Part shown: positions 5,658 to 15,524 of the stretch, one piece after another
Position numbering within the stretch: the first letter of the stretch is position 1
Layout: each line of letters begins with the position of its first letter
Assembly (NCBI GenBank): GCA_038153405.1
Contig: JAYOYH010000017.1
Span: 28,352 to 91,175 of the forward strand
Direction: 5' to 3'
Length of the DNA: 62,824 bases
Source of the DNA: Gemmatimonadota bacterium
GTDB lineage: Bacteria > Latescibacterota > UBA2968 > UBA8231
The notes under the pieces: model-generated
Told to the model about the DNA's origin: nothing
What the model saw: only the letters and a program-made list of their open reading frames with translations
The model's database searches: none
Program-made: the position numbers and the translations under genes

Positions 5658-6458
5658 TTAGGGGCCTACCACGCGGTTTTTGAGCTGGCCAATGCCCTCC
5701 AATTCGACGATGACCTCGTCGCCTGGTTTGAGCCAGACCGGCGGTTTGCGCGCAAAGCCGACTCCTTGCGGAGTGCCGGTGAGAATGACGGTGCCTGGCA
5801 GCAGCGTGGTGTCCTGGCTGAGAAAGCTAATGATTTCGGCGACGGAAAAAATCATGTCGCCGGTGGTGTGGTCCTGCATGGTCTGGCCGTTGAGAATCGT
5901 CTTGATGCCCAAGTTTTGCGGGTCGGCAATCTCGTCTGCCGTGACCAGCACCGGTCCAAGGGGGCAGAACGTGTCAAAACCCTTGCCGCGTATCCACTGG
6001 CCGCCGCCGGCATTGAGCTGCCACTTGCGGGCCGATACGTCGTTGGCGCAGGTATAGCCCAGCACGCAGTCCAGCGCATCGTCAACGCGCACATCGCGCA
6101 CTGGTCGTCCAATGACGACGGCCAGTTCGCACTCGTAGTCGACTTCTTCGTCCTGCTGGCAGGCCGGCAGGCGTATGGGGTCGCCGGGGTGGCAGAGCGC
6201 GCTGGTCGGCTTGGCAAAGACGATGGGTAGTTTGGGCTCTTCCATCCCCGACTCGGCGGCGTGCTCCCGATAGTTGAGCCCTATGCAATATATATTGGTC
6301 GGGGCGATGGGGGCTAGTAGCTTGGCAATAGGAGCGGTCGTTCCGCTCGGCGACAGGCCCGCGTAGAGATCGCCTTCGAGTATCTCGGCCTGGCCGCCCT
6401 CGCTTTCCGCGCCGTAGTGCTCGCGGTTTTCGCCATCTAAAAAACGAATAATGCGCAT
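5658..6458 (-). CDS. Fumarylacetoacetate hydrolase (FAH) family protein
   Basis: CIGLNYREH, DYECELAVVIG, NDVSAR, GKGFDTFCPLGP and ILTGTP motifs; GGAGGAG RBS before ATG 6458. Confidence 0.92.
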   Translation of the reverse strand: MRIIRFLDGENREHYGAESEGGQAEILEGDLYAGLSPSGTTAPIAKLLAPIAPTNIYCIGLNYREHAAESGMEEPKLPIVFAKPTSALCHPGDPIRLPACQQDEEVDYECELAVVIGRPVRDVRVDDALDCVLGYTCANDVSARKWQLNAGGGQWIRGKGFDTFCPLGPVLVTADEIADPQNLGIKTILNGQTMQDHTTGDMIFSVAEIISFLSQDTTLLPGTVILTGTPQGVGFARKPPVWLKPGDEVIVELEGIGQLKNRVVGP

Positions 6459-6495
6459 ATGTTCTCCTCCTTTTTTCGCCGCGTTACAGGCGATC

Positions 6496-6566
6496 AAGGT
6501 AGGCGTTGCAGGGCGCGAGTGTCAAGCCGAGGCCAACTTGACGGAGGGGGTGCCCCCGACTATTTT
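6496..6566. promoter_or_regulatory. Divergent sigma70-type promoters for the FAH gene (-) and the BMC core operon (+)
   Basis: (+) TTGACG 6538-6543, 17 nt, TATTTT 6561-6566; (-) TTGACA 6525-6520, 18 nt, TACCTT 6501-6496. Confidence 0.5.
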
Positions 6567-9085: not shown

Positions 9086-9646
9086 ATGTCGGATGCAATC
9101 GGAATGGTAGAAACAGTCGGGCTGGTGGGCATCGTCGAGGCCGGCGATGCCATGGCCAAAGCGGCCAGCGTACAGCTCTTGGGCTGGGACAAGGTCGGTT
9201 CGGGATTGGTTACGGTGTTTTGTTCGGGCGACGTAGCTGCCGTGAAGTCGGCCGTAGATGCTGGATCTACGGCAGCGGCCAAGGTCGGCAAGGTGCACTC
9301 GGTGCACGTGATCCCGCGTCCGCACGAGGAATTGGGCGCCATTATTCCGCACCGCGGCGAGGCGGGCTCATCAGACGGCGTGCGCGCGCTGGGCCTAATC
9401 GAAACGCGCGGTGCCACCGGTGTAATTGAGGCCGCTGATGCGATGAGCAAAGCGGCCGATGTAGATATCGTCAAAGTGCAGGAAATCGGCGGGGGCTACA
9501 TCACCGTGCTGGTCAGCGGCGACGTCGGATCGGTGCAGGCGTCGGTCAGCGCCGGAGCCGAGGCCTGCGCGCGCGTCGGCGAGTTGGTTTCGCAGCACGT
9601 GATCCCGCGTCCGCACGACGATGTGGTCGCCCTCTACTTGAGCTGA
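9086..9646 (+). CDS. BMC shell protein with two tandem BMC domains
   Basis: Two repeats of AIG/ALG-xxETxG...DAMxKAA...GDVxxV...HVIPRPH; AGGAGG RBS. Confidence 0.93.
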   Translation: MSDAIGMVETVGLVGIVEAGDAMAKAASVQLLGWDKVGSGLVTVFCSGDVAAVKSAVDAGSTAAAKVGKVHSVHVIPRPHEELGAIIPHRGEAGSSDGVRALGLIETRGATGVIEAADAMSKAADVDIVKVQEIGGGYITVLVSGDVGSVQASVSAGAEACARVGELVSQHVIPRPHDDVVALYLS

Positions 9647-9661
9647 TAGGAGATACGCACT

Positions 9662-9925
9662 ATGAAAGCACTTGGTATGGTGGAGACGAAGGGCCTGGTA
9701 TGCGTGGTCGAGGCCTTAGATGCAATGCTCAAAACGGCCGATGTGAGCTTCGCCGGCCAGAAGCGCGTCGGCAGCGGCTTCGTCGCCGTGCTCGTCGAGG
9801 GCGATGTGGCAGCGGTTAAAGCCGCCGTTGATGCCGGCGCCAGCGCGGCGCAGCGCGTCGGCGAGTTGCGCAGCGTGCACGTGATCCCGCGTCCGGTGTC
9901 AGACTTGACGCAGCACCTGTCGTAG
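9662..9925 (+). CDS. BMC hexameric shell protein (BMC-H, EutM/PduA-like)
   Basis: ALGMVETKG...DAMLKTA...VGSG...[10 protein letters not shown]...HVIPRP. Confidence 0.95.
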
Positions 9926-9937
9926 TCTGCGCTCCGC

Positions 9938-10432
9938 ATGGCTTCCGTCCTCTACATCGAAGAGGCCGTAATAACGGGCGATATGCTGTCGCGCCGCCAC
10001 GCCGGTGAAGAGCAGGTGTGCGTCGACGAGGGAGCGATTGTCACGCCGACGGGGTGGGACTATCTGCGCCAGAAACGCCTGCCGCTCAGCAGGGGCAAGA
10101 GCCCTGAGCCGGCTACCCCGGCTGCGCAAGCACCCGCTCGGCTCATTGCCGAAGTGGAGGCCCCGCAGATGGATGGGGCGGGGCGCTGCGACCATCCCGG
10201 GCGCTCGTGTGGCTGCCAAACCGAGGAGTTTGGCTCGGGTTATGTCGAGCCCAGTTCGTGTCGCGATTGCGCCATTTACCAGATGAAGAGCCGGGGCGAG
10301 AGTGGGGCCAGCTGTCACGGCTGCAATCGTCGTGCGCTGCTCGACCAGTTGATCGAGTCGGGGCAGGGCGTCGACCCGGAGCAGTTGATCGGTGAGGTGA
10401 CGGCGCTGGTCGTGCACCGCTTGGAGGATTGA
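9938..10432 (+). CDS. BMC-associated hypothetical protein: small N-terminal domain, Cys-rich centre, C-terminal encapsulation-like helix
   Basis: GAIVTPTGWDYLR motif; CDH..CGC, CRDC and CHGC; C-terminal VDPEQLIGEVTALVVHRL; embedded in the operon. Confidence 0.8.
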   Translation: MASVLYIEEAVITGDMLSRRHAGEEQVCVDEGAIVTPTGWDYLRQKRLPLSRGKSPEPATPAAQAPARLIAEVEAPQMDGAGRCDHPGRSCGCQTEEFGSGYVEPSSCRDCAIYQMKSRGESGASCHGCNRRALLDQLIESGQGVDPEQLIGEVTALVVHRLED

Positions 10433-10433
10433 G

Positions 10434-11015
10434 ATGCCCGCCGCTATCGGCCTAATAGAAGTCGAGGGAGTGGCCGGTATTATCGCGGCGGCCGACGCCG
10501 CGCTCAAAGCGGCCGACGTCGAGCTGCTCGGCTGGGAGTCAATCGGCGGGTTTACCACCGTCCTGTTTAGCGGTTCGATCAGCGATGTGGGTGCGGCCTT
10601 GGACAGCGGTCGGGCCGCCGCCGCGCAGGTCGTAGAGCACGTAGTTGCCGCGCCCGTGACACAGCCGCAGGAAGCCTGCCTGCGCTTTGCGAGTTTTCCC
10701 GTTCAAAAAGAAGCCATCGTGCGCGATGGTGCGCTGGGCCTGGTCGAAACCCGCGGCTACGCTGCCCACGTCTACGCCGATGACGATATGGTCAAAGCGG
10801 CTGATGTAGAGGTCGTCAATGTGCTAACGGTGCACAACCGGGTGGTTTGCTCTCTGGTGCAGGGCGACGTCGGCGCGGTGCGCGAGGCCATCGCGCGAGC
10901 CGAAATGCGCCTGCGAGACTATCCACATCTGCTGAGCACGTTGGTCTTGCCACAGCCGCGCCGCGAGGTATTGCAGACCTTTGCCGTGCAGCTGCGAGGA
11001 GAGGGCAGTGTCTAA
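10434..11015 (+). CDS. BMC shell protein with two tandem (divergent) BMC domains
   Basis: AIGLIEVEG...DAALKAA and ALGLVETRG...DDMVKAA...GDVGAV. Confidence 0.9.
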   Translation: MPAAIGLIEVEGVAGIIAAADAALKAADVELLGWESIGGFTTVLFSGSISDVGAALDSGRAAAAQVVEHVVAAPVTQPQEACLRFASFPVQKEAIVRDGALGLVETRGYAAHVYADDDMVKAADVEVVNVLTVHNRVVCSLVQGDVGAVREAIARAEMRLRDYPHLLSTLVLPQPRREVLQTFAVQLRGEGSV

Positions 11016-12159
11016 AGCCATTGGCGTACTCGAGACGCGCGGCATGGCTTCGCTGCTAAACGCCACCGACGCGATGCTAAAAGTATCCGATGTGCGCGTA
11101 GCCGGTCGCCACGGCATTGGTTCGGGTTGGGTGACGGTGGTGATTGAGGGGAGCGTCGCCGACGTACACGCCGCCATTGCCGTCGGCCGAGTCGAAGCTC
11201 AGCGCTACGGAGAGCTCATCGGTGCCGAGGTAATTGCGCGTCCGGACGCGCGTGCTCAGGAGGCGATGCCGCACGGTGCGGCCATCGGTGGCGCTGTATC
11301 GAGCGACGGCCGTGCGCTGGGCGTGGTGGAAACGCAGGGACTATCGCCGCTGATAGCGGCCGCCGATGCCATGGTTAAGGCGGCCGATGTCGACCTGTGC
11401 GGCTGGGCTTTTATTGGAGGTGCGCTGTGCCACGCCGTCGTGCGCGGCGACGTGGCCGCCGTGCAAACGGCCGTCGCGTCTGGCCGTCGCGCGGCAGAGG
11501 GCGTGGGCGCTACCTATGCTACGCTCGTTCTGCCACAGCCCGTCGCCGGCCTCGCGCCGCTGTTGCCGGCCTTGCCTAGCGGCGACGTGGGAGCGGGCGG
11601 TGCACTCGGCGTAGTGGAAACCATAGGTTACGCTACGGTCGTGGCGGTAGGCGATGCGATGGTCAAGGCCGCCGATGTCCAGGTGCGGCGACTGAGCATC
11701 GGCAGCGGCGGGCGCATTGCCGCGCTCGCGGTGGGAAGTTTAGACGCCGTGCAGGCGGCCGTAGGGGCGGGCATGCAGGAGGCTAGAGCCGTAGGTGAAC
11801 TGGACGGCAGCACGCTGGTATCGCGGCCGGACGGCGCCACCATGGCGTGCTTTGCCAGCTCGGTAGAGGGGCCGCGCCGCGCCGCCGCGCGCCGCGCACT
11901 TGGGCTCATAGAGACGCGCAGCACCGTTGCGCTAGTGCGCGCTGTCGACCAGATGTTAAAGGCGGCTGATGTCGAATACGAAGGCAGTTTTAAGGTGGGC
12001 TACTTTTTGACCGCCAGTGTGGTGCGCGGCGATGTCGGAGCCGTCAGGGTAGCTATCGATGTAGGCGCACAGGAAGCGGCAAAGCACGGCGAGCTCGTCT
12101 CTGCCCTCGTCATTCCGCAGCTGTATGGCGACGTCGAACTGCGCCTGCCGCATCAATGA
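11008..12159 (+). CDS. BMC shell protein with four tandem BMC domains
   Basis: Four repeats begin AIGVLETRG, ALGVVETQG, ALGVVETIG and ALGLIETRS, each with D-x-M-x-K; GTG 11008 preceded by GAGGAGAGG, overlapping the upstream gene by 8 nt. Confidence 0.9.
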   Translation: MSKAIGVLETRGMASLLNATDAMLKVSDVRVAGRHGIGSGWVTVVIEGSVADVHAAIAVGRVEAQRYGELIGAEVIARPDARAQEAMPHGAAIGGAVSSDGRALGVVETQGLSPLIAAADAMVKAADVDLCGWAFIGGALCHAVVRGDVAAVQTAVASGRRAAEGVGATYATLVLPQPVAGLAPLLPALPSGDVGAGGALGVVETIGYATVVAVGDAMVKAADVQVRRLSIGSGGRIAALAVGSLDAVQAAVGAGMQEARAVGELDGSTLVSRPDGATMACFASSVEGPRRAAARRALGLIETRSTVALVRAVDQMLKAADVEYEGSFKVGYFLTASVVRGDVGAVRVAIDVGAQEAAKHGELVSALVIPQLYGDVELRLPHQ

Positions 12160-12210: not shown

Positions 12211-13380
12211 ATGGTTCGCATAGACGATTCGGTAATTACGGCACAGGTCTTGCAGGATCGATTGGGCGCCGAGCGCGAAGTCGAGATTTGCCCAATGGCT
12301 AAGCTGACACCTTCAGCACTCGACTTTTTGCGCGAGCGCAGCATTGAAGTAGCGCGCCGCGAGGCCCGTGCCACGGGTGGCACGGCCGTGGCTGCGGCGG
12401 CATCAACGCCGTCGTCGTCGCAACGCCGCGATTTCAAGGGTATCTTCTGTCCCAATATCGTCATCTTCGACAGCGCGGGTCGCATCAACTACGGCGAGAT
12501 GGAGCGCTACGTGAATTGGCTGATCGATGCGGGGATCCACGGGCTCTATCCCAACGGCAGCACGGGCGAGTTCGTGCGCCTGTCGTGGGAGGAACGCCAA
12601 GACGTGGTGCGCCTCATTGCCGAAGTAAACGGTGGCCGCGTGCCCATTCTGGCCGGTGCGAGCGAAGCCAATACGCGCGACGTGCTGAAAATGGCCGAGT
12701 TCTATGCCTCGATTGACGTAGATGCCATTTCGCTGGTCCCGCCCTTTTACTACAAGATTTCCAACGAGAGCCTCTTCGAGTATTTCGCCGAGGTCGCCGA
12801 GCAGTCGCCGCTCGATATTTTGCTTTACAACATACCGCAGTTTACGCAGGAACTTCCGCTGGAACTGATGGAGCGCCTGTTGCCGTACGAGCGCATTTTT
12901 GGCACGAAGGATTCCAGCCGCGATCTACCTCGCTTGATCAATACCATGCACCGTCTGCGCGCCCAGCGTCCCGACTATGTCGTGTTGGTCGGTTGCGAAG
13001 AAATTCTGTTTCCATCGGTAATGATGGGAGCCAGCGGTGGTACGATCGCTACATCCGGTATTGTGCCGGAAGTGATCGTCGAGCTGTATGAGCAGGCCTT
13101 GGTCAACAATGTCGACCGTGCGCGCACGCTGCAGTACCGCATTCTCGATCTGATCAACATCATGTTACTCGGAGTGAATTTCCCCGAGGGCTTTAAGACC
13201 GGGGTTGCCGTGCGCGGTTTTGACGTGGGTCCTGCTCGCGCGTCGACGAGTCCGGGCGAGCAGGAGTATCTGCTTAAACTCGAAGCGCAGATCGGCTGCG
13301 TGCTCAGCGATATGGGCTACTCAGTGCGCGGTGCGCGCGCCTGTCCCGTTACAAACCTGCCGCCTATCGTAGGCCGTTGA
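12211..13380 (+). CDS. DHDPS/N-acetylneuraminate-lyase family class I aldolase with an extra N-terminal domain
   Basis: NGSTGEF, LYNIP and Schiff-base Lys in GTKDSS; ~70-aa N-terminal extension with AKLTPSALDFLR. Confidence 0.88.
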   Translation: MVRIDDSVITAQVLQDRLGAEREVEICPMAKLTPSALDFLRERSIEVARREARATGGTAVAAAASTPSSSQRRDFKGIFCPNIVIFDSAGRINYGEMERYVNWLIDAGIHGLYPNGSTGEFVRLSWEERQDVVRLIAEVNGGRVPILAGASEANTRDVLKMAEFYASIDVDAISLVPPFYYKISNESLFEYFAEVAEQSPLDILLYNIPQFTQELPLELMERLLPYERIFGTKDSSRDLPRLINTMHRLRAQRPDYVVLVGCEEILFPSVMMGASGGTIATSGIVPEVIVELYEQALVNNVDRARTLQYRILDLINIMLLGVNFPEGFKTGVAVRGFDVGPARASTSPGEQEYLLKLEAQIGCVLSDMGYSVRGARACPVTNLPPIVGR

Positions 13381-14582: not shown

Positions 14583-15524
14583 ATGACTATTGCGACAAAT
14601 GAGTTAATCGAATCCCTAAATTCCGTCACTTCGATTCCCGTAGTGCCTTTTCGCGGTGGCAAAATCGACTACGACGCCCATGCCAAGAATATCCGCTATT
14701 TGATGGATAACAATCATTTGGATGGGGATCGCCGGCGCGTAATCGGCATCGCCGGCACGAGCTTGATCCACCATATTGGGCGCGACGAACAGGTGCGTCT
14801 GATCGACTTTACCGGCCAACAGATGGCCGGGCGTGGCGTCCTCATGTCCGGTATCGCGCCCAATCCCATTGCCGACGCCGAAGACCTTATTCGCCGCGAA
14901 GCTGCGCTGCCAGTAGCGCCCGACTGCTATCTGGTGATGCCGCTGACGGGCGTGGGCAATGCCGAGGGCATTTTCCAAAACCACTTGGATATGGCCGAGC
15001 GTCTGGGCCGCGAAACGGGTGCGCGTTTTCTGTATTACCTGCGCAACAAGGCCGAGCGCGAGACGGCCGTCCGCTTGCTCAACGAGTCCGAGTATTTTAT
15101 CGGTCTCAAAATTGGCACCGATATCGACGATGTGAAGTCGATTGTAGAGGGCGTCAACGACGGGGCTGGTATCGTCATATGGGGTGTGGGTGATCGCTCT
15201 ACCGGGCCGGCTAGCCGCGGAACGCTAGGTCATACTTCCGGTATTAACGTGGTCTTTGTCCGCGCGTCTGATGCGATTAACAACGCTCAGCGCAGCGGCG
15301 ATCTGCAGGCCTCGCAGCGCGTCGAAGACGAAATTGCCGCCTTTGAGGAAATTCGCTTTCGCGATAGCCGCATGTACAATTACTCCGCCGTGGTTGAGGC
15401 GATGCATATAGTGGGCAGCGATGCGATTGATGGCGGCGATGGCGGCCCATTCAATCCGCGCGTACCGGCTGAAGTGGCGCGCGAAGTGGCGGCAGCCATT
15501 GAGCCCTTGATGCAGTACCACTAG
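14583..15524 (+). CDS. Divergent DHDPS-family (TIM-barrel Schiff-base lyase/dehydratase) protein
   Basis: IPVVPF..GKIDYDA N-terminus, LYYLR Tyr, IGLKIG Lys, GHTSG; AGTS in place of GSTGE. Confidence 0.7.
   Translation: MTIATNELIESLNSVTSIPVVPFRGGKIDYDAHAKNIRYLMDNNHLDGDRRRVIGIAGTSLIHHIGRDEQVRLIDFTGQQMAGRGVLMSGIAPNPIADAEDLIRREAALPVAPDCYLVMPLTGVGNAEGIFQNHLDMAERLGRETGARFLYYLRNKAERETAVRLLNESEYFIGLKIGTDIDDVKSIVEGVNDGAGIVIWGVGDRSTGPASRGTLGHTSGINVVFVRASDAINNAQRSGDLQASQRVEDEIAAFEEIRFRDSRMYNYSAVVEAMHIVGSDAIDGGDGGPFNPRVPAEVAREVAAAIEPLMQYH

Follow-up and report, generated by a model that had tools for sequence, protein, structure and literature searches.

A two-domain and a four-domain BMC shell protein, encoded side by side in a MUF2-type locus of Latescibacterota, as candidate partners in a 1:1 asymmetric pseudohexamer

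Standard microcompartment shell tiles are homohexamers or homotrimers, together with mixed hexamers of free one-domain chains. How, then, could a shell protein with four BMC domains take its place in a tile, given that four does not divide six and that such a protein thus fits neither the BMC-H nor the BMC-T class? This question is raised by a stretch of 62,824 nucleotides (the window) from a Gemmatimonadota bacterium placed by GTDB in Latescibacterota. In the window, a 383-aa protein with four BMC domains (Q4; 11008..12159, + strand, GTG start) is encoded directly after a 193-aa two-domain BMC shell protein (T_B; 10434..11015, + strand, ATG start), which corresponds to Ts_hazel of Sutter et al. 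(2021). An initial annotation, made from the sequence alone, proposed that the two proteins unite as a single tile. Judging from genomics and single-chain models, we consider it probable that T_B and Q4 form a 1:1 asymmetric pseudohexamer.

The domain content is as the initial annotation read it. Pfam PF00936 matched two stretches of T_B (at approximately 10443-10649 and 10731-10958; 127.6 bits) and four consecutive stretches of Q4 (at approximately 11017-11244, 11314-11541, 11602-11829 and 11896-12120; 243.8 bits), all on the + strand. Each of these six domains, here denoted TB1, TB2 and Q1 to Q4 in their order along the chains, separately scored above the curated PF00936 cut-off, no internal stop was found, and the BMC fold was present in every T_B and Q4 domain according to both Pfam and predicted models. 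The coordinates and frames of the 8-nt overlap between the Q4 start and the T_B stop (11008..11015, + strand) were likewise correct; an AGGAG-like site precedes both starts, and the overlap is likely to couple the translation of the two genes. The edge motif D-x-M-x-K, claimed for all four domains of Q4, occurs as DAMLK, DAMVK, DAMVK and DQMLK, and the six differing pore strings that had been quoted (WESIGG, LTVHNR, HGIGSG, AFIGGA, SIGSGG and FKVGYF) are all present as given. The motif of TB1 reads D-A-A-L-K, without Met, and Ala occupies the Met position in 111 of 117 homologues.

The doubt that the four-domain frame might be an assembly error was not borne out, as the complete Q1-Q2-Q3-Q4 order at 355-404 aa was found in 138 of 148 collected proteins, a set in which the window's own Q4 is counted twice. 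Q4 is intact in 78 genomes at pairwise identities down to 37%, and quadruple fusions were noted in print (Sutter et al., 2021, PMC8217296, in the supplement). The ESM Atlas holds a Q4 cluster of 457 members, in which Latescibacterota is the commonest taxon, and relatives carry the titles Latescibacterota or "Gemmatimonadota." In each of the sequencing runs X2 and X3, one contig covered the stretch without a gap; the two have the same length and depth and possibly represent one data set or the source of this DNA. Some relatives are broken, as an artefact or a recent read-through of separate genes might lead one to expect: L197 has an in-frame stop after Q2, L183 a frameshift after Q3, and P0123 and P0126 are frameshifted. 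Against the conserved full-length order, however, this explanation is already refuted and retains virtually no probability. The RNA run X19 yielded only one 225-nt contig, too little to show expression.

The breaks in L197 and L183 both fall in Q4 linkers. In the Q4 homologue at L197:244-1452, the linker between Q2 and Q3 contains an in-frame TAG with a TTG directly after it, which is due to a point error or else reflects a naturally occurring 2+2+2 organization. The homologue at L183:5340-6546 (also L106 and L238, the three being counted as a single event) has a frameshift in the Q3-Q4 linker that yields 3+1 domains, either by error or as a natural 2+3+1 arrangement.

As far as the accessible text of Sutter et al. 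(2021, PMC8217296) describes that type, the locus is a MUF2-type metabolosome operon. Its main part encodes the core enzymes aldehyde dehydrogenase (PF00171; 6610..8046, + strand) and PduL-type phosphotransacylase (PF06130; 8359..9054, + strand), as well as a tandem triplet of BMC-P pentamer genes (PF03319; 4730..5572, + strand) and a further BMC-P copy (PF03319; 8059..8358, + strand). The MUF2 marker, a Cys-rich 164-aa protein without a Pfam match (9938..10432, + strand), is encoded between a one-domain BMC-H (9662..9925, + strand) and the BMC-Ts, and its N-terminal domain recurs in a nearby class I aldolase of the DHDPS family (PF00701; 12211..13380, + strand), in which it is an extra domain. 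Both the double (Ts_hazel) and the quadruple BMC fusions are present, and the MUF2 satellites are found elsewhere in the same genome: a PF00596 aldolase with a BMC-H at L262 (contig C20), and a BMC-H of 156 aa with a C-terminal extension at L263 (contig C14). Compared with the published description, the main locus has only one plain BMC-H (9662-9925), plus another BMC protein of two domains, whose pore loops are canonical and which carries RPH motifs (T_A; 9086..9646, + strand), and in that respect this MUF2-type locus departs from it.

In the MUF2 supplement, a single clause mentions "quadruple linear fusions" and "double (Ts_hazel)" without pairing them, and the word "quadruple" is absent from the accessible main text; members of Ts_hazel are given there as 187-194 aa long (PMC8217296). 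One of these members, CME28_01115, has a locus tag that adjoins CME28_01110 (P0008), a 382-aa four-domain protein 77% identical to Q4. Thus, both proteins have already been catalogued.

The N-terminal domain common to the Cys-rich protein (9938-10432) and the aldolase (12211-12360) is 33% identical over 46 aa (E 3e-6) and has no Pfam match, and an ESM Atlas search with the aldolase copy gave scores of only 0.82 or less. It is a candidate shell-binding module. The closest solved structures to the aldolase (12211-13380) are those of KDG-aldolase, DHDPS and YagE-type enzymes, from which we guess that its substrate is a keto-deoxy sugar acid or a related compound. Downstream of the aldolase are an FAD-dependent oxidoreductase (PF01266; 13377..14474, + strand) and a second, divergent DHDPS-family protein (14583..15524, + strand). 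A FAH-family hydrolase gene lies inside the operon on the opposite strand (5658-6497, - strand) and is kept in several genera. An IspH/LytB gene (PF02401; 3432-4757) is found immediately 5' of the operon, as it is in many relatives of family f1, and a gene resembling that of the beta-subunit of N,N-dimethylformamidase (PF20254; 1154-2740, - strand) lies between ORFs that, by eye, resemble queF and queC.

Conserved adjacency, which the initial annotation had suggested looking for, proved to be strict. Every one of the 78 genomes in which Q4 is nearly full-length has T_B directly 5' of it; the two genes are spaced by -13 to +14 nt in 77 genomes and by 175 nt in the remaining one. T_B also directly precedes Q4 in six truncated or split cases. 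A survey of the phylum, covering 168 genomes, detected T_B in 84, of which 83 also have Q4, either complete or interrupted by the end of a contig; in the sole exception, G096, the contig ends inside T_B. No Q4-level match was found in any of the 84 phylum genomes without T_B, so that no Q4 without T_B was seen in this survey. Fifteen other genomes matched Q4 at E 1e-20, the best at only 6.6e-32, and those inspected hold single-domain genes. Among metagenome loci with a Q4 start, some of which possibly duplicate genomes already counted, T_B ends within 60 nt in 55 of 56, and the remaining locus begins at its edge. It should be noted that the counted genomes are kin from one class and the counts are not independent, for which reason no statistical test is claimed.

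The aldolase gene follows Q4 in 73 of the 78 genomes. A search at E 1e-100 did not detect it in the near-closed genomes G102, G107 and G108, which keep T_B-Q4, and the link between T_B and Q4 is thus the tightest. Adjacency indicates shared function, not contact: the aldolase is nearly as linked, yet it is no ring subunit. The genes of T_B, Q4 and the aldolase stand by themselves as a cassette in families f3 and f4, apart from the main microcompartment locus. According to a comparison of L171 (from G054) and L172-L175, the main locus of these families is unlike the MUF2 locus described here, and many relatives have it without the cassette; at L171:5649-16070 in G054 it encodes PduL, BMC-H, three BMC-P, aldehyde dehydrogenase, a class II aldolase and acetate kinase. 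In G097, two T_B-Q4 pairs are found on contigs C118 and C304 (L078 and L178), with T_B sequences 51 and 62% identical to that of the window, resulting from either duplication or contamination of the bin (7%).

Which protein would complete Q4 does not follow from domain arithmetic alone, because the operon also encodes T_A and the one-domain BMC-H, both of which the initial annotation had overlooked. Family f3 is informative in this regard. Its 16 genomes with the pair have exactly eight PF00936 domains and its six genomes without the pair have exactly two, which means that the six domains of T_B and Q4 are gained or lost as a whole block in this family. T_A was found only in family f1 (63 of the 168 genomes, six of which, from genera g17 and g18, have it duplicated) and in none of the 22 f3 genomes. 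In the f3 genomes G054, G056, G059 and G043, the two remaining PF00936 domains are single-domain genes, which in the closed genome G054 lie about 2.2 Mb away from the pair. Thus, T_B is the only two-domain candidate in f3, and T_A, which was not found in this family while the pair is present in 16 of its genomes, was rejected as a partner and probably does not pair with Q4. Another shell protein of two domains, whose pore loop has a Cys, is encoded at L176:7764-8336 of G069, and we take it to be PduT-like by its motif.

A six-domain fusion of T_B and Q4, also sought at the suggestion of the initial annotation, did not appear in searches with T_B for longer proteins, an absence that amounts to weak evidence, or among the best 120 of 620 matches to Q4. 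The 411-aa P0123 (TB1-TB2-Q1) was rejected as such a fusion, as it contains two frame changes and resembles a contig error. Outside Latescibacterota-type loci, no frame with at least three BMC domains was found among the matches listed (80 loci).

Single chains were modeled with AlphaFold2 from alignments of 57 sequences, which remained of the 78 after near-duplicates of >93% were removed. The resulting models of Q4 (pLDDT 91.5, pTM 0.90) and T_B (pLDDT 93.7, pTM 0.91) were compared with solved structures, and pairs matching the Q2-Q3 and Q3-Q4 junctions were found. Over 178 residues, modeled Q3-Q4 superimposes on 6NER, a fusion of two BMC-H in tandem, at 1.3 A (Z 20.5), and Q2-Q3 (residues 94-263) on EutL (4EDI) and EtuB (3IO0) at 2.5-2.8 A over 144-148 residues. 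The training set of AlphaFold2 is older than the 2019 release of 6NER. Given that Q2-Q3 and Q3-Q4 are predicted in the geometry of ring neighbors, Q4 is best read as likely being an open arc of four-sixths of a ring, with room for two further domains. The T_B model likewise matches 6NER chains as a unit (TM 0.79-0.83, rmsd 2.3-5.0 A), whereas PduT and Haliangium BMC-T1 overlay the T_B and Q4 models only one domain at a time (rmsd ~15 A, target TM 0.40-0.47). From these models we infer that the domains of T_B and Q4 succeed one another round the ring in one shared direction, the reverse of that in PduT. No sequence with more than two BMC domains was present among the best 60 of 63 PDB matches.

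Within this genome, the six domains share 26-45% identity with one another, and a quick tree of 25 genomes places each in a group of its own (SH-aLRT 91-99). Identities between the classes are 24-38% and the tree does not resolve how the classes are related; an origin of Q4 by doubling of a two-domain gene, with Q1 like Q3 and Q2 like Q4, is therefore unsupported. Every class has a conserved pore loop: S-I-G-G-F/Y, one residue shorter, in TB1; V-H-N/D-R in TB2; G-S-G in Q1; G-G-A in Q2; G-S-G-G in Q3; and K-V-G-Y-F/Y in domain four of Q4. The edge Lys is found in 117 of 117 pairs for five of the domains and in 116 of 117 for Q2. In the (P/A)RPH motif, Arg prevails only in Q1 (87/117) and Q3 (97/117); TB1, TB2, Q2 and domain four of Q4 most often have Gln at this position. 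Where the motif count resolves the repeat period, values of mostly 96-99 aa were obtained at each of the three Q4 junctions, with 95-97 aa for T_B and 96-99 aa for T_A, and the middle junction of Q4 is thus not special. Covariation across the 117 pairs (effective number ~45 at 80%) was uninformative, as it ranked the four known-adjacent domain pairs, its positive control, last of 30, and a T_B-Q4 distance correlation of 0.94 was set aside, being accounted for by shared descent.

The initial annotation's 1:1 heterodimer tile is, on these grounds, partly supported: genomically the case is strong (adjacency in 78/78 genomes, the 8-versus-2 block in f3), and structurally the arc model makes it plausible. 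Nothing that the initial annotation had listed as refuting it was observed: four domains score in Q4, its gene is unbroken across a class, and it was not seen apart from T_B. In the mechanism that we propose, the overlapping genes would lead to roughly 1:1 synthesis of the two proteins, and T_B would fill the two-domain gap of the Q4 arc, closing it into a single six-domain ring in the order TB1-TB2-Q1-Q2-Q3-Q4, with no two positions alike. Such a tile could join the shell via its lysine edges and, because four of the six domains have lost the edge Arg, would be a minor component among ordinary BMC-H hexamers. Its pore would have no symmetry: the bulky loops (H-N/D-R of TB2 and G-Y-F/Y of domain four of Q4) would flank the short Gly-Gly loop of TB1, which implies an off-center opening. 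Most speculatively, the tile might gate or dock the pathway of the adjoining DHDPS-family aldolase. We further lean, with somewhat less assurance than for the 1:1 pairing itself, toward a natural, obligate two-chain tile without rotational symmetry, with six domains in fixed order and a shaped pore, which together with the aldolase would constitute a three-gene plug-in for more than one type of microcompartment, being added to MUF2 in one family and to a separate aldolase/acetate-kinase locus in another.

Q4 might, alternatively, be completed by two BMC-H chains, with T_B forming an ordinary homotrimer and the genes being linked via a common pathway. All counted genomes with the pair have at least two further BMC domains, mixed BMC-H hexamers are common and their paralogues promiscuous (PMC12058022, in its accessible text), and this combination leaves room for such a ring; T_B also folds as a pair of ring neighbors like 6NER, which forms trimers and shells. 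The BMC-H, however, varies by family: in genera g1 and g12 it is 86-100% identical to that of the window, and f3 has another paralogue, encoded at a locus far away, whereas T_B and Q4 stay together and their six domains come and go as one block, and we regard this alternative as unlikely. Self-assembly of Q4, with T_B as an independent trimer, is distinctly unlikely. Three chains provide 12 domains, which divide into two linked rings, and stacked trimers are described among BMC-Tdp proteins (PMC8217296, in its accessible parts), but the double-ring or tile-bridging trimer offered as an option by the initial annotation conflicts with the modeling of Q2-Q3 and Q3-Q4 as neighbors within a ring; moreover, a chain spanning two rings needs one odd junction, while all three are of similar conserved length, and the fixed link to T_B would be left unexplained.

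It is also conceivable, although very unlikely in our estimation, that the 2+4 ring forms without being a permeability tile and instead acts, within the shell or outside it, as a one-sided scaffold on which the aldolase or the Cys-rich protein docks or nucleates. The stand-alone cassette of f3 and f4, the N-terminal domain common to the two proteins and the loss of the edge Arg from four of the six domains would all be in keeping with a scaffold. The retention of the edge Lys in all six domains, the position-by-position conservation of the pore loops and the persistence of the pair in the three near-closed genomes in which the aldolase was not found argue against this reading.

The components of this system have been catalogued, and its locus belongs to a named type. 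A search of the open-access literature revealed neither a published pairing of T_B with Q4 nor a proposal of a 2+4 tile. If the proposed pairing is true, nature makes a tile with six individually tuned positions, whose pore and faces could fit one asymmetric molecule. It would also account for a catalogued oddity, provide a way into MUF2, one of the microcompartments of unknown function, and offer a ready engineering scaffold in which each of the six positions can be changed alone.

Among known systems, the closest is the MUF2 catalogue of Sutter et al. (2021, PMC8217296), which, in its accessible parts, contains the same proteins in a matching locus layout; its clause on the fusions gives no pairing, stoichiometry or mechanism. 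The BMC-Ts trimers (PduT, 3N79/3PAC; Haliangium BMC-T1, 5DIH; 3NWG) likewise consist of tandem, unpermuted PF00936 domains and tile as pseudohexamers. They are, however, homotrimers, and their paired domains fail to superimpose as a unit on either model, T_B or Q4, which suggests an opposite domain order round the ring; T_B thus shares with them the two unpermuted domains and, in its predicted model, not the PduT-like arrangement. The synthetic tandem BMC-H fusion 6NER is the best match in both sequence (E 6.7e-52, among the best 60 of 63 PDB matches) and fold, with the same domain order in the models, but it is engineered and has two domains and one chain type, unlike the natural T_B and Q4. 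In BMC-H heterohexamers (CcmK3/CcmK4, CcmK1/K2, PduA/PduJ and CsoS1A/B), different domains also meet in one ring and the symmetry of the pore is broken; as described in the accessible text of PMC12058022, these are mixtures of free one-domain chains, typically of two types. In a 2+4 tile, by comparison, fusion would fix the order of the domains, and six types would be brought together in two chains.
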